The notes beneath the pieces are model-generated. The model worked only from the letters and a program-made list of their open reading frames with translations. It had not been told where the DNA came from and ran no database searches. Source: a virus. Taken from it: 38,660 nt of DNA. The stretch is from the UHGV virus genome UHGV-0366580, one strand, 5' to 3'. The translations under genes and the position numbers were made by a program. This document shows, one piece after another, positions 9,269-38,660 of the stretch (position 1 is its first letter; each line of letters opens with the position of its first letter).

Positions 9269-9691
9269 ATGGCTGAAACACAGATGAGCATGTTTGGTGA
9301 CAGCGAACAGCTGCACGCGCTGATTGACCGTCTGGATGATATTCCTGATGATGAGCTGAAAAAGAACTGGCCCGGCACGCTGCGGGACCTGGTTGATGTG
9401 ATCAGTGCTGAACTGCACCGTCAGGGGATTGAACCTGCTCAGGCGGGAATGCTTGCCCGTAAGGTTGCAGCCGCACAGGCCGGGTACATGGGCGGGCGTG
9501 GTTATTATCTCCCGGTCGGTGAATCCCTTTTCACCGAACTGCGCAATAATGAAATTTTTTCCCGCTGGAGCCAGGGCGAAAAAATTGAAACCCTGCGCCG
9601 CCATTACCGGATGTCAGAAACCCAGATTTACACCGTCATACGCGAACAGCGCCGTCTGCATCTGGCAAGAACGCAACCGCCACTTTTCTGA
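9269..9691 (+). CDS. Mor/C-family transcription activator (middle or late regulator)
   Basis: 140 aa; C-terminal region resembles the Mor/C family as recalled from memory; directly precedes the lysis and structural genes. Confidence 0.7.
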   Translation: MAETQMSMFGDSEQLHALIDRLDDIPDDELKKNWPGTLRDLVDVISAELHRQGIEPAQAGMLARKVAAAQAGYMGGRGYYLPVGESLFTELRNNEIFSRWSQGEKIETLRRHYRMSETQIYTVIREQRRLHLARTQPPLF

Positions 9692-15578: not shown

Positions 15579-16887
15579 TCTGGGTTATGCCGCCACGCTT
15601 CCCTCAAAAGAGGCGGTGGCATACTTCCGCGCCAAAGGGGCGCATATCAGCTGGAACTGGTTCGAAACAGACGCGGATGTTCATGCCCGTTCATTCACGG
15701 CGGCAAAAGTGGCACGCCTGGACGTACTGACCACACTACAGGCGGAAGTGCAGCGTGCTGTTGATGAGGGGATTTCACAGAAAGCATTTATTCGCACGCT
15801 GACACCCCGCCTGCAAAAGCTGGGATGGTGGGGAAAACAGATTGTGGTGGACAGTGCCGGTAACGCGGAAGAAGTGCAGCTGGGCAGTCCCCGCCGTCTG
15901 GCGCTGATTTACAACGTGAACACCCGTGTGGCTTACAATGCCGGGCGTTACACGCAGATGATGAACAACACGGACACGCATCCGTTCTGGCAGTATGTGG
16001 CGGTGATGGACAGCCGCACCCGCCCGGCACATTCCGCCTTTAACGGGCTGGTATTCCGCTATGACGATCCGTTCTGGAATACACACTACCCGCCCAATGG
16101 CTGGAACTGCCGCTGCCGTGTCCGGCCATTATCTCAGGCCCGTCTGGATGCAATGGGGTTATCCGTTTCATCCGGTCAGGATCATCTCTCCACCCGCAAT
16201 GTTGAGGCTGGCGTGGATAAGCAGACCGGAGAAGTCAGAGAAATGCCGGTGACCACATATTCAGATGGCACCAGAACCATGACACCGGATGTGGGCTGGT
16301 CATATAACCCCGGTTCGGCGGCGTTCGGCACAGACCAGGCGCTGATCCGTAAACTGATCGAGGTGAAAAGCCCGGCGTTACGGGAAATGGTGGTTCAGGA
16401 GATGAACAACAGCCCGGAGCGGCAGCTGGCGTTCCGCATCTGGGCAAAAAACATCATGAAGACCCGGCGAGGTGGTCACGATATCCGCACGCTGGGCTTT
16501 ATGACCGAAAGTATTGCGCAGGCGGTGGAAAGCCGGACGGGAACGCCACCGGCCCGCCTGCTGGCGATGAGCGGTAAAAATGTGCTCCATGCGGACAGCG
16601 TGAAACATCAGAATGACGGCATTGCCCTGACGCCGGAGGATTTCGGGCGATTACCGGCAATGCTGGCCGCGCCTGATGCCGTGCTGTGGGATCATGTCCA
16701 TCAGAATCTGCTTTACATCACTGAAACCCGTGACGGAACGGCAAAGATTGCCGTCAATGCGCCTTATAGTGTGAAACGTCAGCCGGATAAGCTGGATGTG
16801 GTGATTAATGCCTACAGAGTCAAAAAGGAGGCATTACTTGATGATCTGCGCGGTGGAAAGCTGGAATTACTGGAGGGTGAATTGTAG
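15562..16887 (+). CDS. Mu F-like head morphogenesis protein
   Basis: 441 aa; contains the NGWNCRCRV region typical of Mu F / SPP1 gp7 minor head proteins. Confidence 0.75.
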   Translation: MAQGIDLGYAATLPSKEAVAYFRAKGAHISWNWFETDADVHARSFTAAKVARLDVLTTLQAEVQRAVDEGISQKAFIRTLTPRLQKLGWWGKQIVVDSAGNAEEVQLGSPRRLALIYNVNTRVAYNAGRYTQMMNNTDTHPFWQYVAVMDSRTRPAHSAFNGLVFRYDDPFWNTHYPPNGWNCRCRVRPLSQARLDAMGLSVSSGQDHLSTRNVEAGVDKQTGEVREMPVTTYSDGTRTMTPDVGWSYNPGSAAFGTDQALIRKLIEVKSPALREMVVQEMNNSPERQLAFRIWAKNIMKTRRGGHDIRTLGFMTESIAQAVESRTGTPPARLLAMSGKNVLHADSVKHQNDGIALTPEDFGRLPAMLAAPDAVLWDHVHQNLLYITETRDGTAKIAVNAPYSVKRQPDKLDVVINAYRVKKEALLDDLRGGKLELLEGEL

Positions 16888-16971
16888 GTCGGTGGCGGGG
16901 GTCGAACCCGCATAAACATCCCTCAGGAAAAAACCATCAGGCGCCGCTTTACCAGTTAAGAGTACACCGAC
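16888..16971 (-). other. tRNA-like element or degenerate tRNA remnant
   Basis: Minus strand: 7-bp acceptor stem GTCGGTG/CACCGAC, U8-A9, D-loop-like TAACTGGTAAAG with GG, canonical T-arm GCGGG-TTCGACC-CCCGC; no clean anticodon stem found; no CCA. Confidence 0.35.
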
Positions 16972-18784: not shown

Positions 18785-19731
18785 TGCCTACCCCGATTAC
18801 ACCGGCGATGATCACCGCCCTGATGACGGGCTACCGTTCTGATTTTCAGGCCGGGATGTCCATGGCCCCGTCGCAGTACAAAAAAATTGCGATGACCGTG
18901 CCCTCCACCTCGAAATCCAACACCTACGGCTGGCTGGGGCAGTTCCCGCAGTTCCGTGAGTGGATCGGCTCCCGCGTCATCGAGAAGATGAAGGCCTATG
19001 GCTATGCCATCGTGAACAAAACCTTTGAAGGCACCGTCGCCATTAACCGTGATGACTTCGAAGACGATAACCTCGGTATTTATTCCCCGTTGTTCCAGGA
19101 GATGGGGCGCGCTGCTGCGGCACAACCGGATGAACTGGTCTTTGCTGCTCTTCGTGACGGGATTAATGCGGCCTGCTATGACGGCCAGAACTTCTTTGAT
19201 ACCGAACATCCTGTTTACCCCAAAGTGGATGGCTCCGGGGATGCGCAGATGGTCAGCAATATGTTTGTGGCAAAAACCGGCTCTGTCGGTGCACAGGCGG
19301 ATTACAGCGGTCCTGCCTGGTATCTGCTCGACTGTTCACGCGCAATCAAACCGCTGATTTATCAGGATCGCCGTAAGGCTGAACTGGTTGCCCAGACCAA
19401 AGTCGATGAAGGTCGCGCATTCACCGATAACGAATTTGTGTTCGGTGCTTCCGCCCGTCGCAATGTGGGCTACGGCTTCTGGCAGATGGCCTACATGATG
19501 CAGTCACCGCTGACGCTGGATGCACTGTGGCACGGCTGGTCAGCCATGCGCGAATTTACCGCTGACGGTGGCCGCAAGCTCGGCATCAAACCCACCCATA
19601 TTGTTGTCCCCACCTCGCTGGAAAAACAGGCGGTGCAGCTGCTGGAGCGTGAACTGTTCGCAGACGGAAACGCCACCGTCTCTAACGAGATGAAGGGCAA
19701 GCTGGAGCTGGTTGTCGCGGATTATCTGTAA
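18784..19731 (+). CDS. Major head subunit (Mu T-like)
   Basis: 315 aa; start overlaps the I stop (TAATG); followed by a GC-rich hairpin (19739-19757). Confidence 0.8.
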   Translation: MPTPITPAMITALMTGYRSDFQAGMSMAPSQYKKIAMTVPSTSKSNTYGWLGQFPQFREWIGSRVIEKMKAYGYAIVNKTFEGTVAINRDDFEDDNLGIYSPLFQEMGRAAAAQPDELVFAALRDGINAACYDGQNFFDTEHPVYPKVDGSGDAQMVSNMFVAKTGSVGAQADYSGPAWYLLDCSRAIKPLIYQDRRKAELVAQTKVDEGRAFTDNEFVFGASARRNVGYGFWQMAYMMQSPLTLDALWHGWSAMREFTADGGRKLGIKPTHIVVPTSLEKQAVQLLERELFADGNATVSNEMKGKLELVVADYL

Positions 19732-30592: not shown

Positions 30593-31140
30593 CGCTTGCA
30601 GCTCATCAGCGCGCATTGTTGCAGCTCCTACCCGATGGCCTGGCATGGGATAAACGTCCTGAATCCGTGTTGTCAGCCTTATGTCTTGGGCTAAGTCACG
30701 CCACCGAGCGTGTATCCTGGACGGCTAATCAGTTACTTTCGGAGCGCTTTCCGGAAACATCCCGGATGTTACTGGAGGACTGGGAGCGTTATCTGGGGTT
30801 GCCTGAATGTGATATGGCAGGAGCAACGTTGCAGGAGCGCCAGCGATACGCGGCGAATAAATACCGTATGAAGCCGTCACTGAACCGCGAGTTTTATATC
30901 CGGTTTGCGGCTGAATTTGGCTATGTGATTGATATTCAGCCATCACCGGAATCGCAGTGGATCAGTATTGTGACCGTAAAAAGCGAGGTTGGGTATCGTC
31001 ACATGCATGTGCTCGATCACATTCTGACGCCTCTGCGGATATATGAAGGTGGTGCGCTGGAATGCATTTTAAACCGGTATAAACCGGCCTGGCAGACGTT
31101 TTTATACATTTACGAAAAGTCGCATGAGGAGACGGAATAA
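30583..31140 (+). CDS. Mu gp48-like tail protein
   Basis: 185 aa directly upstream of the tail fibre gene. Confidence 0.65.
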   Translation: MALTLAAHQRALLQLLPDGLAWDKRPESVLSALCLGLSHATERVSWTANQLLSERFPETSRMLLEDWERYLGLPECDMAGATLQERQRYAANKYRMKPSLNREFYIRFAAEFGYVIDIQPSPESQWISIVTVKSEVGYRHMHVLDHILTPLRIYEGGALECILNRYKPAWQTFLYIYEKSHEETE

Positions 31141-32108
31141 TGTATTTCGTGGATAACAATACCGGTACGACAGAGATGCCAGCGCTGGCTCCATCGCAGG
31201 GTACTGAAGTTAAGTGGTTTACGGAAGGCGACGGTAATAAAGGTATCAGCCATATCGGGCAGGACTGGCTTAATATCATTCAGGCAGAATTGCTTGCGAT
31301 TTTGACTGAAGGAAAAATTCAACCAGATAAAATGAAGCTGAATCAGCTTACACTGGCAATCAAGGCCATTATTACGGCCAATGCTTTTTTACGTAAAAAC
31401 AACCTGAAAGAAATCGAGGATGCGGGAGCTGGTGCTCAGGCGAATGCCAGAAAAGCTCTTGGGCTGGGGACTCTGGCGACAAAAGATAAGCTTTCACCAA
31501 CAGATGTTGGTGCGCTTGAAAAAAGCAAAAATTTGTCTGACGTACCCGATAAAGTTGCGGCCCGTACCAACCTTGGGGTTTACAGTAAAGAAGAAGGTGA
31601 TCGGCGTTATCTGAAAAGCGGCGCAGATATTGGTTCATATAGTCGCGAACAAAGTGATGGGTCATATCTTAAGGTTGCGTCAAATGGTTCTGACATTGCA
31701 AACAGAAGTGCCTTTATCGATAACCTCGGTTTACGGGAAACGGTAAACAGGGCGGCGAATGCCCTGCCATCGAACGGAACGGCCGTTGCCGCGAACAGGC
31801 TGGCAAATGCCCACACAATTAATGGTGTTCCCTTTGACGGAACGCAGGATATCAACATTACCTCCGGTATGACCGAAGCTGCTGCTGATAACAAATACGT
31901 TCGCAACGTTCAGCTTGGTGCCCAGAGTTACCATTCACCCGGAGGTAATGAAATGTCCTGGAGTTATGGCGCGCCTTCCGGTTGTATGCTTTCAGGTATT
32001 AACGTGCAGGAGACCGGGAGAAATTCAGCCGATAATATCGGAGGCGTTTATTACCGTCCGGTGCAGATATATATCGGTAATGCCTGGCGCACAGTTTCAT
32101 CCGTCTGA
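31140..32108 (+). CDS. Tail fibre protein S; the 3' ~380 bp (variable part Sv) lies inside the invertible segment
   Basis: 322 aa; the gix-L site falls inside the coding sequence, so the C-terminus is exchangeable. Confidence 0.8.
   Translation: MYFVDNNTGTTEMPALAPSQGTEVKWFTEGDGNKGISHIGQDWLNIIQAELLAILTEGKIQPDKMKLNQLTLAIKAIITANAFLRKNNLKEIEDAGAGAQANARKALGLGTLATKDKLSPTDVGALEKSKNLSDVPDKVAARTNLGVYSKEEGDRRYLKSGADIGSYSREQSDGSYLKVASNGSDIANRSAFIDNLGLRETVNRAANALPSNGTAVAANRLANAHTINGVPFDGTQDINITSGMTEAAADNKYVRNVQLGAQSYHSPGGNEMSWSYGAPSGCMLSGINVQETGRNSADNIGGVYYRPVQIYIGNAWRTVSSV
31714..31739 (+). other. gix-L-like recombination site for Gin (half-sites TTATCGATAACC / GGTTTACGGGAA, core TC)
   Basis: Closely resembles the Mu gixL sequence as recalled from memory; inner 20 bp is a perfect inverted repeat of 33141-33160. 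Confidence 0.75.
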
Positions 32109-32116
32109 TTAAAGGA

Positions 32117-32139
32117 AAAGGGTGCGATAAGCACCCTTT
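32117..32139. terminator. Hairpin between convergent Sv and tail-fibre assembly genes (possible bidirectional terminator)
   Basis: 9-bp perfect stem AAAGGGTGC/GCACCCTTT with GATAA loop, just after the S stop. Confidence 0.4.
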
Positions 32140-32142
32140 ACG

Positions 32143-32685
32143 TTATTCAGGCTTCTCCGGCCATTTAATGTCGTCAAATTCAGCTTTGTTTTTAATCGCT
32201 GGTAGTTCCATTTTTTTCACCTGACTGATGTATGCCATCCATCGGGTAAGTGCGGCTCTGTCTTCATCACTGATGGTGCCCAGCTGTAATTCTGTTCTCC
32301 AGTCATTAATTTTTTCATATGCCTGATTAAGATATGACTGGCGCATTGCTTCCAGTTTTCTTGCGTAGTTAACCGGAATACGGGAGATCACGCCATTATC
32401 AAACTTCCAGTTACCCGAAATATCAGCACCTTCAGGGAGTTCGTCGACTTCAACCACAGAGAACCCCGCAGGATACAGCGCCGAAGCGTCCTGTGATATT
32501 GAGCAGATAATGCCGCTGTCAGGTGTTATACAAAGTTTATATTTTTTTGTGAATAATGGCAGGGACTCGTAGAAATCCTTACCATCTTCACTCTGAAAAT
32601 ACTGTACATCATTACCATAGAGGGTGTTTTCCGGGTAATATCGTTTAACATTAATCAGTTGCATAAACATCACCATGTGAATCAA
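32143..32685 (-). CDS. Tail fibre assembly protein (U'-like), currently antisense to the tail operon
   Basis: 180-aa minus-strand ORF inside the invertible segment, downstream of Sv' on that strand. Confidence 0.7.
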   Translation of the reverse strand: MIHMVMFMQLINVKRYYPENTLYGNDVQYFQSEDGKDFYESLPLFTKKYKLCITPDSGIICSISQDASALYPAGFSVVEVDELPEGADISGNWKFDNGVISRIPVNYARKLEAMRQSYLNQAYEKINDWRTELQLGTISDEDRAALTRWMAYISQVKKMELPAIKNKAEFDDIKWPEKPE

Positions 32686-32784
32686 TGATAAAAACAGGAA
32701 TAATACTATCGCTATATACGGACAGGGGTTGTCTGAGATAACGCATATATCAGGCGCTGCCTGCCGTACGCCATGAGCCGTTAA

Positions 32785-33160
32785 TTAAATACTTGCAGCG
32801 GATACCCAATTCCCATTAATACAATATTGTATCTGTCTGTAATAAACACGGTCATCACCACCACGCATTTCCCAGTCTCCGTCAGTCTTAAAACCGGTAA
32901 TCACATTTCCTGATGACAGGGAGTAATTATATTCCAGTACGCCGCTTAATGCCTGCGCTCCCAGTCTTACCCCTGTAACATAACGCTGATTGGCCGTTGA
33001 TTCCGGCATTCCTGACGTAATGTTTATATCCCGCGTCCCGTCGAAAGGAACACCATTAATATTTCTTGGGGTGGCGAGTCTGTTTGCTGCCACGGCGGTT
33101 CCCCCCGATGGCAGGGCATCAGCGGCCTTATTTACCGTTTCCCGTAAACCGAGGTTTCAG
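32785..33160 (-). CDS. Alternative tail-fibre C-terminal module Sv' (no start of its own; expressed only after inversion)
   Basis: Minus-strand frame open from the gix-R core; encodes ...NRLATPRNINGVPFDGTRDINITSGMPES..., a paralogue of the S C-terminus. Confidence 0.7.
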
Positions 33161-33174
33161 GGATGCCGTATATC
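33149..33174 (+). other. gix-R-like recombination site (TTCCCGTAAACC / GGTTTCAGGGAT, core GA)
   Basis: Inverted copy of gix-L with matching core dinucleotide (TC/GA), 45 bp upstream of gin. Confidence 0.7.
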
Positions 33175-33218
33175 TGCTTTAAAAAGCATTTCCACCTCTT
33201 TTTAAGGAAGGTAAATAC

Positions 33219-33779
33219 ATGCTGATTGGCTATATACGCGTATCAACAAATGACCAGAACACAGGTTTACAAAGAAATGCGCTGGAATGTGCAGGATGTG
33301 AGCAGATTTTTGAAGACAAAATGAGTGGTAAAACGACGCAGCGGCCGGGACTGAAGCGGGCACTGAAGAAACTAAAACCCGGCGACACACTGATGGTCTG
33401 GAAACTGGACAGGCTGGGGCGCAGTATGCGCCACCTTGTTGCGCTGACAGATGAATTACAGCAACAGGGGATAAATTTTCGTAGTCTTACTGACAACATT
33501 GATACGTCAACCCCCATGGGGCGCTTCTTTTTTCACATAATGGGTGCGCTGGCAGAAATGGAGCGTGAATTGATTGTCGAACGGACACGGGCTGGTCTTG
33601 CTGCTGCCCGTGAAAGGGGACGAACCGGCGGCAGACCCCGTCGTCTCACGCAGGAACAATACGAGCAGGTCGGGCGTTTACTGGCCGGGGGTGTCAGCCG
33701 AAGACAGGTGGCACTTATTTTTGATATCGGCCTTTCAACCCTTTATCGTTATTATCCTGCGAGCGTTTCGGAAAAATAA
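33219..33779 (+). CDS. gin: Gin DNA invertase (serine recombinase, Hin/Gin/Pin/Cin family)
   Basis: 186 aa; MLIGYIRVSTNDQ catalytic-serine motif and C-terminal HTH; closely resembles Mu Gin as recalled from memory. Confidence 0.92.
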   Translation: MLIGYIRVSTNDQNTGLQRNALECAGCEQIFEDKMSGKTTQRPGLKRALKKLKPGDTLMVWKLDRLGRSMRHLVALTDELQQQGINFRSLTDNIDTSTPMGRFFFHIMGALAEMERELIVERTRAGLAAARERGRTGGRPRRLTQEQYEQVGRLLAGGVSRRQVALIFDIGLSTLYRYYPASVSEK

Positions 33780-33878: not shown

Positions 33879-35918
33879 ATGACGTCCAAATGGGTTCAAC
33901 TATCATCAATGCCCGGAAACTTTACTGTTAAAGTTTCCGGTGGTACAGCGGCATTTCTTGAGGCTCCCTTTCCTCCGGCCGAAACAAAAGGAGGAATGAC
34001 ATTTGCTGACTGTCTCATCAGTTTTAATACACGGGATTGCCTGTGGGTAAGGCCAGTATCCGGTGATCCGAGCGTGGAAATTACCGGTGCGGGTATTGGT
34101 GCTGTCATTCCGTTAAGTGCTGATGTTGCCGGTACTGCTGAACCGTCAGACTGGGATAATGCTGAAACACATACCCGTCCGTCAGGAAATGAAACTGCTT
34201 CCAGCTCCCCTTCCTGGTATTACGTGGTGGTTCTTGCTGGTCAGTCAAACGGGATGGCCTACGGTGAAGGTCTGCCGCTGCCGGAGACATATGACCGCCC
34301 CGAACCGCGTATTATGCAGTTAGCCCGTCGCAGTACAGTCACGCCGGGAGGTAAAGCCTGTCAGTATAACGACATCATTCTGGCCGACCACTGTCTGCAT
34401 GATGTGCAGGATATGAGTGGAAAAAATCACCCGAAAGCGGATGTGGCTAAAGGGCAATATGGCACCGTGGGTCAGGGGCTTCACATTGCCAAAAAACTGC
34501 TGCCGTTTATTCCGGCAGATGCGGGGATTCTGCTGGTTCCCTGCTGCCGTGGTGGTTCTGCATTCACGGCGGGTGCTGACGGCACGTACAGTGACAGCAC
34601 GGGTGCTTCAGAGGACTCAGCCCGCTGGGGTGTGGATAAGCCGCTGTATAAGGACTTAATCAGCCGGACAAAAGCGGCACTGGCGAAGAACCCGAAAAAC
34701 CGCCTGCTTGCTGTGGTGTGGATGCAGGGCGAGTTTGATATTGATGCGAAGCCGACGGAGCATTCCGCGCTGTTTCTGGCGATGGTGGAAAAATTCCGCG
34801 CAGACCTGGCTGAACAGGCGGAACAGTGTACCGGTGGCAGTGCTGCTGGCGTTCCGTGGATTTGTGGCGATACCACGTATTTCTGGAAACAGAAAAACGA
34901 ACAGGCATACCAGGCAATCTATGACGGCTACAAAAATAAAACAGATAAAAACATTCATTTCGTCCCATTAATGACAGATGAAAATGGCGCGAATGTACCC
35001 ACCAACAATCCGACAGAAGACCCGGATATTGAATCCATTGGTTATTACGGCTCAACGTGGCGTAACAGTGCCGCCACCTGGACATCTGCGGGCCGGGCCA
35101 GCCATTTCAGTTCATGGGCACGTCGTGGGATTATTTCCGACCGTCTGGCCACGGCTGTTCTGACTCATGCAGGGCGAACCACAGTAAAAGCCGATGTTCC
35201 ATCTTCTGAAACTGAAGCACCAGTGCCGTCACCTTCAGAAACTGAAGCAGTAACCACAACACTGCTGTCTTACCGTGTCAGTGAGTCAGAAGGAAATCTG
35301 AAAGCCCAGGGCTGGGAGCCGGCTGGCGGTAAAGCTGAAATTATCAGTGATGCAGGAGGCACAGGTGGTAAGGCAATGAAACTGACCAAGGAAACAGGTA
35401 AATCATCCTGGTATCTGGATCATGATGCCGGTACTGGTGCTGAACTGCTGAAAAATGGTGGTTTAATCAGTTGTCGTTTTAAAGTACCTGGCGACCTGGT
35501 GGCAAACCAGTATGTCATGGCGCTTTACTGGCCGGTTTCCTCTCTGCCGCAGGGTGTCACCCTGACAGGGGATGCAGGGAATAATCTGCTGGCATCGTTC
35601 TACATCCAGACAGACGCAAAAGACCTGAATGTGATGCACCACAATGCAAAAGTGGCAACAAATAACCAGAAACTGGGAACCTTTGGTGTATTTGATAATG
35701 AATGGCATACGCTGGCCTTCCGTTTTGCAGGAAATAACAGCCTTCAGGTTATTCCGGTTATTGATGGTCAGGATGGTGCCGCGTTTACCCTGACGCAGTC
35801 ACCAGTAGGAACTTTCCCGGTGGACAAACTCCGCGTAACGGATATCACCAAAAATGCAACTTACCCGGTGCTGATTGACAGCATTGTGGTGGAAGTGAAA
35901 AAAGCGGTAACAGAATAA
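33879..35918 (+). CDS. Putative sialate O-acetylesterase-like protein (SGNH/SASA esterase with lectin-like C-terminal domain; NanS-p-like)
   Basis: 679 aa; GQSN motif (VVVLAGQSNGMAYGEG); Ser/Thr/Glu/Pro linker; beta-rich C-terminal ~200 aa. Lies between gin and com. Confidence 0.6.
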   Translation: MTSKWVQLSSMPGNFTVKVSGGTAAFLEAPFPPAETKGGMTFADCLISFNTRDCLWVRPVSGDPSVEITGAGIGAVIPLSADVAGTAEPSDWDNAETHTRPSGNETASSSPSWYYVVVLAGQSNGMAYGEGLPLPETYDRPEPRIMQLARRSTVTPGGKACQYNDIILADHCLHDVQDMSGKNHPKADVAKGQYGTVGQGLHIAKKLLPFIPADAGILLVPCCRGGSAFTAGADGTYSDSTGASEDSARWGVDKPLYKDLISRTKAALAKNPKNRLLAVVWMQGEFDIDAKPTEHSALFLAMVEKFRADLAEQAEQCTGGSAAGVPWICGDTTYFWKQKNEQAYQAIYDGYKNKTDKNIHFVPLMTDENGANVPTNNPTEDPDIESIGYYGSTWRNSAATWTSAGRASHFSSWARRGIISDRLATAVLTHAGRTTVKADVPSSETEAPVPSPSETEAVTTTLLSYRVSESEGNLKAQGWEPAGGKAEIISDAGGTGGKAMKLTKETGKSSWYLDHDAGTGAELLKNGGLISCRFKVPGDLVANQYVMALYWPVSSLPQGVTLTGDAGNNLLASFYIQTDAKDLNVMHHNAKVATNNQKLGTFGVFDNEWHTLAFRFAGNNSLQVIPVIDGQDGAAFTLTQSPVGTFPVDKLRVTDITKNATYPVLIDSIVVEVKKAVTE

Positions 35919-35953
35919 AAAAAATCCCGCCGGTCATGATATGGCTGGCGGGA
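35916..35953. terminator. Hairpin with upstream A8 tract (on the minus strand: hairpin followed by T8)
   Basis: TCCCGCCGG...CTGGCGGGA 9-bp stem immediately after the esterase stop. Confidence 0.45.
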
Positions 35954-36067
35954 GCTACCTAACCCATAAAGGAAAATAAAAATACTCCCGAAGGAGTAGT
36001 TACCAGTCACTTCGTCATGTTTTTACCCGATAACGAATTATGTAGTCAATATCAAAGGTAAGGTTAT

Positions 36068-36250
36068 ATGACATTCGTTCATACAATGCTGCTTTATTTC
36101 TGCGCTGTGGTCAGTGCGTTATATCTGGTGAGCGGCGGTTATAAGGTCATCAGAAATTATATTCGCCGCAAAATTGATGACGCAGCAGCCGAAAAGCTCA
36201 GTAAAACAGCACAGGCACCATCATCCCCAAACGACCCGACCCCGCTCTGA
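36068..36250 (+). CDS. Small membrane protein (one TM segment)
   Basis: 60 aa; hydrophobic LLYFCAVVSALYLVSGGY; AAGGTAAGG RBS. Confidence 0.45.
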   Translation: MTFVHTMLLYFCAVVSALYLVSGGYKVIRNYIRRKIDDAAAEKLSKTAQAPSSPNDPTPL

Positions 36251-36285
36251 TAACGGGGCAATATACCTGCAAAAGGAGAATATTC

Positions 36286-36531
36286 ATGCCAGAGATTAAA
36301 GGCACGGTTACTGAAGAGCTTGTCAAACAGGCACTTTATTCTGAAGAAGTGAACCGCGTGCTGAAGGCGCAGGTTCGCAAGGATTTTGAGGCACAAATCG
36401 ACGCATATGTTGATGAAGTGCTGGCCCGAATGGTTGGCCGTTCTCCGGCTGAAAACAGCACGGAAAATGCTCCTCAACCCGTAGAGCAACCAGAGCCGGT
36501 TCAGCCCGGAACTGACGGTACTATGATGTAA
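36286..36531 (+). CDS. Hypothetical small protein
   Basis: 81 aa; strong RBS AAAGGAGA 7 nt upstream; followed by a terminator hairpin. Confidence 0.5.
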   Translation: MPEIKGTVTEELVKQALYSEEVNRVLKAQVRKDFEAQIDAYVDEVLARMVGRSPAENSTENAPQPVEQPEPVQPGTDGTMM

Positions 36532-36540
36532 CAATACCGA

Positions 36541-36572
36541 CCGGCAGGTTTCCCTGCCGGGTGAATTTGTTA
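36541..36572 (+). terminator. Candidate intrinsic terminator (CCGGCAGG/CCTGCCGG stem, TTTC loop)
   Basis: 8-bp perfect stem followed by GTGAATTTGTT. Confidence 0.5.
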
Positions 36573-36599
36573 ATGCACGTTTTGTGTATTTTCCCTCTG

Positions 36600-37149
36600 G
36601 GGAGAACAGGCAGGGCATATCAGCATCCTGAAACAGGAAGCATTTTTTGGTTTGTATGTCTTGCCATTTTGAGATCGAGAACGGCGATAGATGAGCTGTA
36701 AGGGAGTCTTACAGGCAGGGTAAACAGGCTCTTTATCCATGATAAAGATCTCCTTTTTATGCATCTCTGCTTTACAGGAGACCGGGGAATATCATAGGAT
36801 ACGCCACGAGCTCGAAGTAAAGCATTGATGCAAAATTGTCTAAATCGGCCCAGAATAGTTCGCGCTATCTGGGTCGCCCTTTATGTATGTAGTATCCCAT
36901 TGATTTGAAACATACTACATATACGCACAATCCTACCTTCACTGTATAAAAAGTCAATAAAATGATCATTTTATGATCGTTTTCACCACCTAACTCTTCG
37001 TTTTCTTTAAGTAAGTAATCACCGCCCTGAATCATTGTTGATGACTTTTCAATCTATTTGTTGTATCAATTAAACAAACCGAATCGATCGTTTTTGTCGA
37101 TCGATTGCATGAGAAAGGCATCAACAACAAAGCAGGAGGTTATGCGGCC
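36600..37149 (+). promoter_or_regulatory. AT-rich non-coding region upstream of com with GATC clusters and inverted repeats (candidate mom-type late promoter)
   Basis: GATC at ~36673, 36748, 36964, 36976, 37086, 37098; AATCGATCG-N7-CGATCGATT inverted repeat at 37082-37106. Confidence 0.45.
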
Positions 37150-37335
37150 ATGTATCGAAACATACGGTGCCGACACTGCAATAAGCTACTGGCACGGGCC
37201 AGTTTCAGTTATCTGGAAGTAAAATGTCCGCGCTGCAAAACCCTCAATCAAATCACATCTCAGAGCGCCACAGAGCACCCCACATACACAAGGAAATCCT
37301 GCCGTGGGGAACAAGAAACATTACTTTCAGTCTGA
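37150..37335 (+). CDS. com: Com-like zinc-finger translational activator
   Basis: ATG 37150 with AGGAGG RBS (TTG at 37105 is the upstream alternative); RCRHCNKLL...KCPRCK motif; 3' end overlaps the next gene by 32 nt. Confidence 0.75.
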   Translation: MYRNIRCRHCNKLLARASFSYLEVKCPRCKTLNQITSQSATEHPTYTRKSCRGEQETLLSV

Positions 37336-38356
37336 TAAGTCACTAACCTATGGTTCAGTATGCAGTGGTATTGAAGCTGCGACAGTAGCCTGGAGCAATC
37401 TTGGCTGGAAAGCCAGATGGTTCAGTGAAATAGAGGACTTCCCGTCAACACTTCTTTCATATCGCTGGCCCCATATACCAAATCTTGGTGATATGGCTTT
37501 GCTTGCGCCTCGTATCAGGGATGGGCTTATTGAAGCACCAGATATTCTTGTAGGTGGAACTCCGTGTCAGGCATTCAGTATGTCAGGCAAACGAAAAGGC
37601 CTTTCAGATCCACGGGGGCAGTTAACACTGTCTTTTGTTGAACTGGCGAATCAGATAGATACCGTTCGGGCATCGCTCAATAAATCCCCCTCAATAATCG
37701 TATGGGAAAACGTCACAGGAGTTTTAAGTAGCCATGACAATGCATTCGGTCATTTTCTTGGTGCGCTGGCCGGAGCAGGTTGCGCATTACAGCCAGCAAG
37801 GAAAAGATGGGCAAACGCTGGTGTTGTGTCTGGACCATCGCGTATCGTCGCCTGGCGAGTACTTGATGCCCAATATTTCGGAGTCGCCCAGGCTCGCAGA
37901 AGAGTGTTTGTTGTGGCAAGTGCTGGAAAAAGGCTCGATCCCGGAAAGGTATTATTTGAGTTCCCGCCTGTGTCGCAGGGCGATAAAAACTATTACGGAA
38001 AGAAGAAAAAATCCGAATCCCTTCTTGATCAAGGCATTGAAGGAAAATTGCACCGATATTGCCTTGAAGCATTGCCAAAACGAACAGGCACAGTAATAGC
38101 TGGCTATAACGGAACAACTAACCAGGACATGACTATGTCTGGTGGGCTCATAGTTGAAAGAGCGCCATATTCAAGGGTTCGTAGGTTGACGCCAACCGAA
38201 TGCGAGAGGCTACAAGGTTTTCCCGATGGATATACAGATATTCCATGGAAAAATTCATCTCCAGCTCATCGTTATAAGGCCATTGGAAATTCAATGCCTG
38301 TACCGGTCATGAAATGGATTGGTCGAAGAATACAGGAAGCGTTAAACGAAGTTTAA
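37304..38356 (+). CDS. C5-cytosine DNA methyltransferase (Dcm-like), in the position Mu uses for mom
   Basis: 350 aa; motifs GGTPCQAFSMSG (PCQ), ENV (IVWENVTG), QARRR, ERLQGFPDGYT, AIGNSMPVPV; GTG start inside the com 3' end. Confidence 0.85.
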   Translation: MGNKKHYFQSDKSLTYGSVCSGIEAATVAWSNLGWKARWFSEIEDFPSTLLSYRWPHIPNLGDMALLAPRIRDGLIEAPDILVGGTPCQAFSMSGKRKGLSDPRGQLTLSFVELANQIDTVRASLNKSPSIIVWENVTGVLSSHDNAFGHFLGALAGAGCALQPARKRWANAGVVSGPSRIVAWRVLDAQYFGVAQARRRVFVVASAGKRLDPGKVLFEFPPVSQGDKNYYGKKKKSESLLDQGIEGKLHRYCLEALPKRTGTVIAGYNGTTNQDMTMSGGLIVERAPYSRVRRLTPTECERLQGFPDGYTDIPWKNSSPAHRYKAIGNSMPVPVMKWIGRRIQEALNEV

Positions 38357-38590
38357 ACCTAAGCAAAAGACATTATGAAGTTGGTTTTTGTGCCGTTAAA
38401 AGATGTCTTTAAGGAGTGCAAAGGAAAGCGCCAATTTAGTATCAAAAAAGATGCTTATCGGCGCTTTTCATCGGTATCAAATGAAATGCAAATCGGTATC
38501 AAAAAAATCGCCGCGCTATACGGTGTACACATTACTTGAACGGTCTGCCCGCCAGTGGGCGCAGGCATTGAACGCAGAGCAGGTATAAGA

Positions 38591-38660
38591 ATGACAGAAA
38601 AAGTAAAACAACATGCCGCTCCGGTAACGGGCAGTGATGAAATCGATATTGGTCGCCTGG
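38591..38660 (+). CDS. 5' end of a probable flanking gene, truncated by the window
   Basis: ATG at 38591 opens MTEKVKQHAAPVTGSDEIDIGRL, running off the window end; identity unknown. Confidence 0.25.
   Translation, partial: MTEKVKQHAAPVTGSDEIDIGRL

Follow-up and report, generated by a model that had tools for sequence, protein, structure and literature searches.

The window analysed here, that is the whole stretch of 38,660 nucleotides (nt) of UHGV virus genome UHGV-0366580, contains most of a Mu-like transposable Escherichia coli prophage of the Sp18-like type. Close to the right end of this prophage, in the position where phage Mu carries com and the DNA-modification gene mom, com is followed by an overlapping gene for a C5-cytosine DNA methyltransferase (hereafter the methylase). 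We refer to the gene behind com as the payload. The features of the locus, together with a putative late activator encoded far upstream, are as follows.

9269–9691, plus strand: late transcription activator of the Mor/C family; as with C in Mu, the lysozyme gene follows directly (Pfam PF08765 Mor, E = 1e-30; annotation of a twin prophage by the Prokaryotic Genome Annotation Pipeline, PGAP)
37082–37106, no strand assigned: GATC-rich palindrome AATCGATCG-N7-CGATCGATT upstream of com, conserved with Mu and Salmonella-type phages
37150–37335, plus strand: com, encoding a 61-amino-acid (aa) CCCC zinc-ribbon translational activator (Pfam, PHROG, BLASTP, alignment)
37263–37279, plus strand: putative Com-binding site GAGCGCC-ACA-GAGCACC, i.e. 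GAG(N)2CC twice, fitting the motif obtained by systematic evolution of ligands by exponential enrichment (SELEX)
37278–37309, plus strand: predicted translation-inhibition hairpin of 6 bp (minimum free energy and centroid folds, comparative pairing)
37304–38356, plus strand: orphan C5-cytosine DNA methyltransferase, 350 aa, GTG start (Pfam, motifs, structural model)
37315–38425, plus strand: exchanged cassette, which differs between mom- and methylase-carrying siblings (pairwise alignment with sibling L002, sliding identity against sibling L005)
38426–38520, plus strand: attR, the prophage right end, common to the mom variant up to ...GCGCTATA and diverging afterwards

The small reading frame is a Com homologue, in agreement with a previous sequence-only reading of this DNA. 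Its product matches PF10122 Zn_ribbon_Com (E = 5.8e-13, 48.5 bits at a cut-off of 22.9) as well as PHROG 13819, "gpCom control of modification" (E = 1.5e-13), and aligns with Mu Com at 52% identity over 44 aa (BLASTP, E = 2e-14). The zinc ligands C7, C10, C26, and C29 are invariant in eight aligned Com proteins, Mu Com included. In one detail, the previous reading has to be corrected: it let the module begin at 37105, where an in-frame TTG lies upstream of the true com start. We rejected this TTG in favour of the ATG at 37150, which is preceded by a Shine-Dalgarno sequence (AGGAGG, 37134–37139), fits the starts of the homologues, and is the choice of PGAP. RefSeq lists the twins of this protein as "Com family DNA-binding transcriptional regulator", an automatic name that is misleading, since Com is described in the experimental literature as an RNA-binding translational activator.

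At the 3' end of com, 32 nt are shared with the methylase frame, which confirms the previously noted overlap with the GTG of a 350-aa protein. This part of com also contains the putative RNA target of Com itself: GAG-CAC-CCC-ACA (GAGCACCCCAC) is dual-coded and specifies the conserved residues E-H-P-T of Com.

The profile search of the overlapping frame bears out its assignment as a C5 methyltransferase. PF00145 is the sole Pfam match and is covered from position 5 to 323 of 324 (E = 1.6e-42). The expected catalytic motifs IV, VI, VIII, IX, and X are present, including TPCQ (86–89), ENV (135–137), QARRR (196–200), and GNSMPVPV (328–335), and the residues P87-C88-Q89, E135-N136-V137, Q196/R198/R200, and G328-N329 of motifs IV, VI, VIII, and X are invariant in 45 homologues. 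A sequence search of the PDB retrieves M.HhaI (E = 2.7e-16); when the N-terminal 107 aa were compared with solved structures in order to read motif I, only motif IV aligned. Further, the catalytic domain is confidently modelled by AlphaFold, with M.HhaI and DNMT3A as best Foldseek matches (probability 1.00, template modelling score 0.55–0.60). The payload does not belong to the Mom family, as it has no PF25680 match, whereas the payloads of sibling prophages match this profile at E = 7.8e-78. Every copy retains the complete reading frame. Judging by its substitution pattern, the methylase is under purifying selection, with a ratio of nonsynonymous to synonymous substitutions (dN/dS) of 0.11–0.22 in comparisons with five homologues at near-saturated dS. 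Inspection of the sequence found no in-frame ATG, GTG, or TTG other than GTG 37304 ahead of motif I, so translation must start at the codon that lies inside the predicted hairpin.

Putative Com site and predicted start-codon hairpin

SELEX with a Com zinc finger yielded a bipartite GAG(N)2CC motif, and in Mu, Com binds a short hairpin that adjoins the structure by which the mom start is concealed and translation inhibited (PMC6483171). The bipartite motif occurs once in the window (0.10 occurrences expected) and exactly once in each related locus, invariably at the com 3' end. It overlaps the 5' arm of the predicted hairpin, in which CCCCAC (37278–37283) pairs with GUGGGG (37304–37309). The GUG start lies within the 3' arm, and the Shine-Dalgarno sequence AGGA (37291–37294) is located in the predicted loop. 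RNA folding thus recovers the start-occluding stem-loop that had been anticipated for this region, in the minimum free energy fold and in the centroid fold alike. Mu displays the homologous pairing, CCCAC...GUGGG, around its own GUG start.

Comparison between loci adds to this picture. All six pairs can form in each of 16 distinct sequences (100% paired); five of them are invariant, and the outer C-G pair is replaced by U-A in Mu, a Citrobacter phage, and one other sequence, a compensatory change. Moreover, the same element with the same GUG-GGG-AAC start is found in front of three unrelated enzymes, Mom, the C5 methylase, and an N6_N4 methylase. As the same element precedes unrelated proteins, the constraint acts on the RNA rather than on the protein. 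For the hairpin, we therefore consider the comparative evidence to be stronger than the thermodynamic evidence. A scan of 36500–38660 against Rfam (E ≤ 1) gave no match, and hence the Com operator and its hairpin do not form a curated RNA family.

Payload exchange and distribution of Com-linked methylases

We located the com/promoter segment at 285 places in 233 complete E. coli genomes. The mom body follows at 273 of these places and the methylase at 10, corresponding to about 3.5% of copies. These ten methylase copies are at least 99.8% identical to each other and reside at several different insertion sites, which shows that the phage is mobile. The annotated coordinates of com and mom in the mom-carrying sibling L002 are exactly those of com and the methylase in the methylase-carrying sibling L001. 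The alignment with this mom variant is near-identical through GTG-GGG-AAC-A, unrelated beyond that point, and identical again from approximately 38420 in attR. Consequently, the first four payload codons (Met-Gly-Asn-Lys) are common to methylase and mom, and divergence sets in at codon 5. Only 2 nt differ between the Com site and the GUG, and the flanks of the payload are 97–100% identical between mom- and methylase-carrying siblings. The swap also alters the disordered C-terminal tail of Com, which comprises 61 aa ending in ...ETLLSV here versus 66 aa in the mom variant. A second C5 allele (L005, 79% aa identity) displays the same pattern, with flanks at 98–100% and a gene body at 61–89% identity, the drop starting from approximately 37315.

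Since near-identical flanks enclose unrelated bodies, the payload is a cassette that was swapped by recombination, with com as its left and attR as its right border. The module swap postulated earlier is thereby substantiated: siblings carry mom at the same start coordinate, and by alignment the event is an in-frame exchange of mom for the C5 methylase at one and the same start codon. The sequence elements of Com control have been kept in this exchange: com, the putative Com-binding motif, and the predicted hairpin are preserved with hardly a base changed.

No gene follows the methylase before attR, and on its upstream side it is preceded by com and phage cargo genes. From its stop codon, only 164 bases of attR (38357 to approximately 38520) separate it from host DNA. 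The prophage ends at 38519 or 38520, and what follows depends on the strain: a hydratase gene, comEC, dacD, pgrR, or a tail gene of another prophage. In DETEC-S792, the prophage interrupts the hydratase gene and is accompanied by a duplicated ATGGA. On neither side did we find a linked restriction endonuclease gene; downstream, there is attR and then strain-variable host DNA. The methylase is thus an orphan, as had been supposed, since it is the last gene before attR and the prophage occupies differing chromosomal sites between strains. A reading frame of 54 aa at 38375–38539 was considered as a partner gene and rejected as spurious: it matches no family, lies within attR, and crosses the prophage end.

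The combination of com with a C5 methylase is not a one-off. In E. coli, Salmonella enterica, and Citrobacter, Mu-like prophages end with a 350-aa methylase that starts with Met-Gly-Asn and directly follows com, and a single Salmonella cluster holds 1584 member sequences; C5 methylases unrelated to this group also stand behind Com in other proteobacteria (see below). The sister clade consists of 344-aa Met-Thr-Ser proteins in lambdoid prophages, which lack Com. These lambdoid genes lie downstream of the Q antiterminator gene among the late genes, in the Enterobacter examples ahead of the holin gene, and the late timing of their methylases presumably results from Q antitermination. In a neighbour-joining tree without bootstrap, the Com-coupled methylases are not monophyletic relative to the lambdoid Met-Thr-Ser clade, a topology that tentatively hints at more than one transfer between Com and lambdoid late-gene slots.

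We surveyed the gene after Com in a sample of 80 Com loci from IMG/VR and in 80 loci from GTDB representative genomes. In IMG/VR, it encodes an N6_N4 methylase in about 31 cases (the tally comprises 32 loci, one of which, L058, has no called downstream open reading frame, ORF), Mom in about 29, a C5 methylase in 9, and a Dam-like D12 methylase in 3. In GTDB, D12 methylases predominate (48 loci), followed by N6_N4 and Mom (6 each) and C5 (3); another 13 genes are of other or unclassified type, and no ORF was called in 4 cases. Two of the three GTDB C5 genes, from a Kiloniellaceae and an Aquirhabdus metagenome-assembled genome (MAG), belong to different C5 subfamilies, and each of them overlaps a Com gene, with GAGCGUC-type motifs close by. 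The AUG start of the Kiloniellaceae gene is clearly covered by a hairpin, and the start codon of the Aquirhabdus gene is uncertain. Because these genes stem from other subfamilies, C5 methylases have been put behind Com more than once.

The surveys brought up several further loci. Com-like matches in Margulisiibacteriota and Saganbacteria MAGs (L145, L158, L172) were discarded as false positives; they precede an ORF of about 597 aa, which we take to be aspartyl-tRNA synthetase from its N-terminal sequence alone. A protein with a weak ABC-ATPase/AAA match is encoded approximately 110–125 nt after a Com-like ORF in a Moraxellaceae MAG (L105, 2798–3487) and in a Pseudomonas MAG (L117, 2816–3937), the latter with an additional sub-threshold GNAT match. 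It may represent another kind of Com-linked payload or merely a neighbouring gene. In Methylophaga thiooxydans DMS010, the same pair of Com and D12 methylase recurs at 13 loci (L115, L124, L127–L137) on at least 11 contigs, several of them at contig ends, which points to a Mu-like element present in several copies or to an assembly that breaks where this element ends. Finally, a contig labelled Vagococcus sp. WN89Y, a Firmicute, carries a Salmonella-type locus of Com and N6_N4 methylase (L098), probably owing to assembly contamination or mislabelling.

A predicted gate and its rivals

The GATC palindrome upstream of com is kept in the window, in the Salmonella-type phages, and in Mu, although its surroundings differ. 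According to references cited in PMC4461284, a GATC cluster at the Mu mom promoter mediates Dam/OxyR control. By analogy, the palindrome would be the counterpart of this cluster, the Mor/C-family protein presumably activates the com promoter, and transcription would be late, C-dependent, and Dam-sensitive. The palindrome itself is the only terminator-like match on the plus strand between 36900 and 38600.

We consider it likely that the mom slot of this prophage holds a Com-gated, late-expressed orphan C5-cytosine methyltransferase. In the lysogen, the com-methylase operon would be silent. During late lytic growth, the Mor/C-family activator would turn on the promoter upstream of com with its Dam/OxyR-type palindrome. 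On the resulting bicistronic mRNA, com would be freely translated, while the methylase would remain blocked, its GUG sequestered in the 3' arm of the hairpin and its Shine-Dalgarno sequence placed in the loop. Com, bound to the bipartite motif that overlaps the 5' arm, would then open the hairpin and permit initiation at the GUG. The methylase would introduce 5-methylcytosine (m5C) into replicated phage DNA before packaging, and the packaged DNA would be protected from m5C-sensitive restriction enzymes in the next host. We infer Com dependence through Com binding and hairpin opening, late timing, enzymatic activity at a target sequence, and an anti-restriction role of benefit to the phage. Published precedent for the gate exists in the form of Com sites before substitute methylases (PMC3299994).

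Several observations weigh against this interpretation. The GATC palindrome is located 44 nt from the com ATG as compared to 79 nt in Mu; being 35 nt closer, it implies that the layout of promoter and activator sites must differ from that of Mu. Between 36900 and 38600, the plus strand contains no sigma-70-like promoter. A search for the Mu-type C box (CATAACCCC, one mismatch) gave 14 matches versus 8.9 expected, none of them on the plus strand upstream of com. Covariation is limited to a single hairpin pair, and the fold is only modestly better than that of shuffled sequences (z = −1.9). In the enzyme, motif I reads V-C-S-G-I-E-A, with a Glu in what we take to be the place of the second Gly of canonical FxGxG, and we found no characterised member of the subfamily with this CSGIEA motif. 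The target-recognition region (222–280) is modelled at a predicted local distance difference test score below 50, so that specificity is not predictable from the model. Finally, many E. coli strains possess McrA/McrBC, which target DNA containing m5C. The modification could therefore be a liability in some hosts, and fatal to an McrBC-positive lysogen in which the methylase were expressed; this may explain the rarity of the methylase among E. coli copies and would fit a tight gate.

The weakness of the fold is the starting point for a first alternative, namely that the methylase is functional but controlled by the late promoter only, with Com site and hairpin left over at a recombination junction. 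A hairpin of 6 bp that is only about two standard deviations more stable than shuffles suits this view, and the element would be carried along, needed or not, whenever recombination took place inside the conserved com region. However, the element has stayed intact in lineages with methylases of only 68–79% identity and with diverged loops and flanks, far beyond the lifetime expected of a relic. Moreover, the unrelated C5 methylases of the Kiloniellaceae and Aquirhabdus MAGs also overlap the Com gene and have the motifs, with a hairpin over its own start in the Kiloniellaceae case, and the GUG in the present hairpin is the only usable start. We regard a relic as quite unlikely. The atypical motif I raises the further question of whether the methylase is an inactive, decayed passenger at the prophage end, an idea to which its rarity in E. 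coli (10 of about 285 copies) lends some weight. CSGIEA is, however, invariant across the subfamily (45 homologues) and for this reason probably a functional motif I variant. A full-length frame in every copy, catalytic residues invariant in 45 homologues, the low dN/dS, the confident model of the catalytic domain, and the Salmonella cluster of 1584 relatives all oppose decay and render it very improbable.

Another possibility accepts the Com gate and assigns the methylase a main role other than classical restriction protection, such as marking DNA for packaging or replication timing, in the way that P1 pac sites are marked by Dam methylation, or countering another defence. Orphan phage methylases can be regulatory; cleavage of pac in P1, for instance, requires dmt (PMC12707154). 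Among the nearest relatives of the present methylase is the C5 half of P1 Dmt (about 48% identity). Yet the methylase swaps freely with Mom and three other methylase families in otherwise near-identical phages, an interchangeability that argues for dispensable, host-directed protection and not for a built-in developmental role. Mom and its FluMu-type substitutes, in addition, are documented as anti-restriction functions (PMC3299994). Such a role thus seems unlikely to us, and the Com-gated, protective methylase remains our preferred interpretation.

An extension of this interpretation is more tentative and, in our estimate, rather doubtful. Com site, hairpin, and Met-Gly-Asn start might constitute a payload-agnostic gate, with in-frame recombination at codons 4–5, and the C5 enzyme might be a potentially toxic m5C hyper-methylase of relaxed specificity, the cytosine counterpart of Mom and of the non-specific adenine methylases Hia5 and M.EcoGII. 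If the hyper-methylase idea holds, toxicity, for instance in McrBC-positive lysogens, would explain the need for a multi-layer gate, and variation in host restriction and Type IV systems would keep mom and C5 payloads in coexistence.

The locus extends the control of mom by Com in Mu to a different modification chemistry, and comparison of the surveyed loci suggests one gate common to four enzyme families, i.e. Mom and the C5, N6_N4, and D12 methylases. Its natural variants delimit the portable unit: the control element ends only after the first four payload codons, and part of it also codes for the C-terminus of Com. Near-identical E. coli prophages with the payload as their sole difference offer an isogenic system for the costs and benefits of adenine versus cytosine modification in hosts with varied restriction and McrBC-type systems. 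The phage C5 methylase subfamily, which is widespread in Mu-like phages associated with Salmonella and Shiga toxin-producing E. coli (STEC), is thereby flagged for specificity work. Induced phage DNA may carry m5C that standard methylome surveys by single-molecule real-time sequencing overlook.

Prophage context and comparison with known systems

The window encodes a series of Mu-like genes, including ner, the Mu transposase (418–2508), GemA, the Mor/C-family activator, head and tail genes, and a Gin-like recombinase (33219–33779). Nearly the same sequence recurs as a prophage in ten complete E. coli genomes, and as regions designated "inserted Mu-like phage" in two Shiga toxin (Stx) phage records. 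A paper on CC119 STEC describes such elements as resembling Sp18 of O157:H7 Sakai (PMC10132054). Within attR, three GTATCAAA repeats (at about 38439, 38474, and 38496) are presumed transposase-binding sites.

Between the Gin-like recombinase and com (33879–36531) lie genes for a NanS-p-like esterase (SASA and DUF6645 domains, 679 aa), DUF1378, and DUF826. Such a set of three genes typically belongs to Stx/lambdoid late regions, yet it forms cargo of a Mu-like phage here, and the mom-carrying siblings have it as well. It is followed, at 36570–37035 on the minus strand between DUF826 and com, by a frameshifted hypothetical pseudogene annotated by PGAP in methylase and mom siblings, which matches no family. 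Tail-fibre and tail-fibre-assembly ORFs on both strands (31140–33205) adjoin the Gin-like serine recombinase, which suggests an equivalent of the invertible G-segment; the corresponding stretch is oppositely oriented in the Salmonella-type loci L007 and L008. In the twin prophage L095, PGAP annotates a "tRNA-OTHER" at 19400–19484 (approximately 16860–16950 of the window, minus strand) between the genes for head morphogenesis and virion morphogenesis, whereas a scan of the whole window with ARAGORN detects no tRNA.

The principle of a retained com with a changed payload is already published, in adenine methylase cases. FluMu (Hin1523), Pnm1 (Nma1821), and an island of Haemophilus influenzae biotype aegyptius (Hia5) carry a com homologue followed by a non-specific adenine methylase that replaces mom (Drozdz et al. 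2012, PMC3299994). The same source reports a Com homologue followed by an adenine methylase in Pseudomonas phage B3 (ORF47/48) and putative Com-binding sites at the 5' end of hin1523 (PMC3299994). In our survey of Com loci, the H. influenzae representative (L120) falls in a divergent D12 class. These systems resemble the present locus in that a Mu-like phage has a methyltransferase behind com in the mom position, and their gene is silent in the lysogen (PMC3299994). In contrast, their enzymes are N6-adenine methylases and ours is a C5-cytosine methylase, and hosts and phage lineages differ. Com and methylase are annotated automatically in RefSeq, and we found no description of a com plus cytosine methylase pair in Mu-like phages in the literature searched, the coverage of which leaves out many subscription journals.

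The com-mom modules of Mu and Sp18 are closest in arrangement. They share with the window a position at the right end beside attR, an upstream GATC cluster, a com 3' end that overlaps the next gene, and a Com-binding motif adjoining the hairpin that buries the GUG start. Further, the sequences to the left and right of the payload are 97–100% identical between Sp18-type phages and the window. The payload itself differs: Mu and Sp18 encode Mom (PF25680), an adenine-modifying protein of acyltransferase fold, whereas the window encodes an S-adenosylmethionine-dependent C5 methyltransferase (PF00145). Because the payload is of this kind rather than Mom, the modified base would be cytosine and not adenine.

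With respect to the enzyme, the closest known systems are the lambdoid C5 methylases of Enterobacter, Citrobacter, Klebsiella, and Pectobacterium (63–70% identity) and, more distantly, the C5 half of P1 Dmt, all of which are phage-borne orphans of the same subfamily. In contrast to these, the methylase of the window stands behind a Com gene, begins with Met-Gly-Asn, and has its start codon within a Mu-type occluding hairpin.

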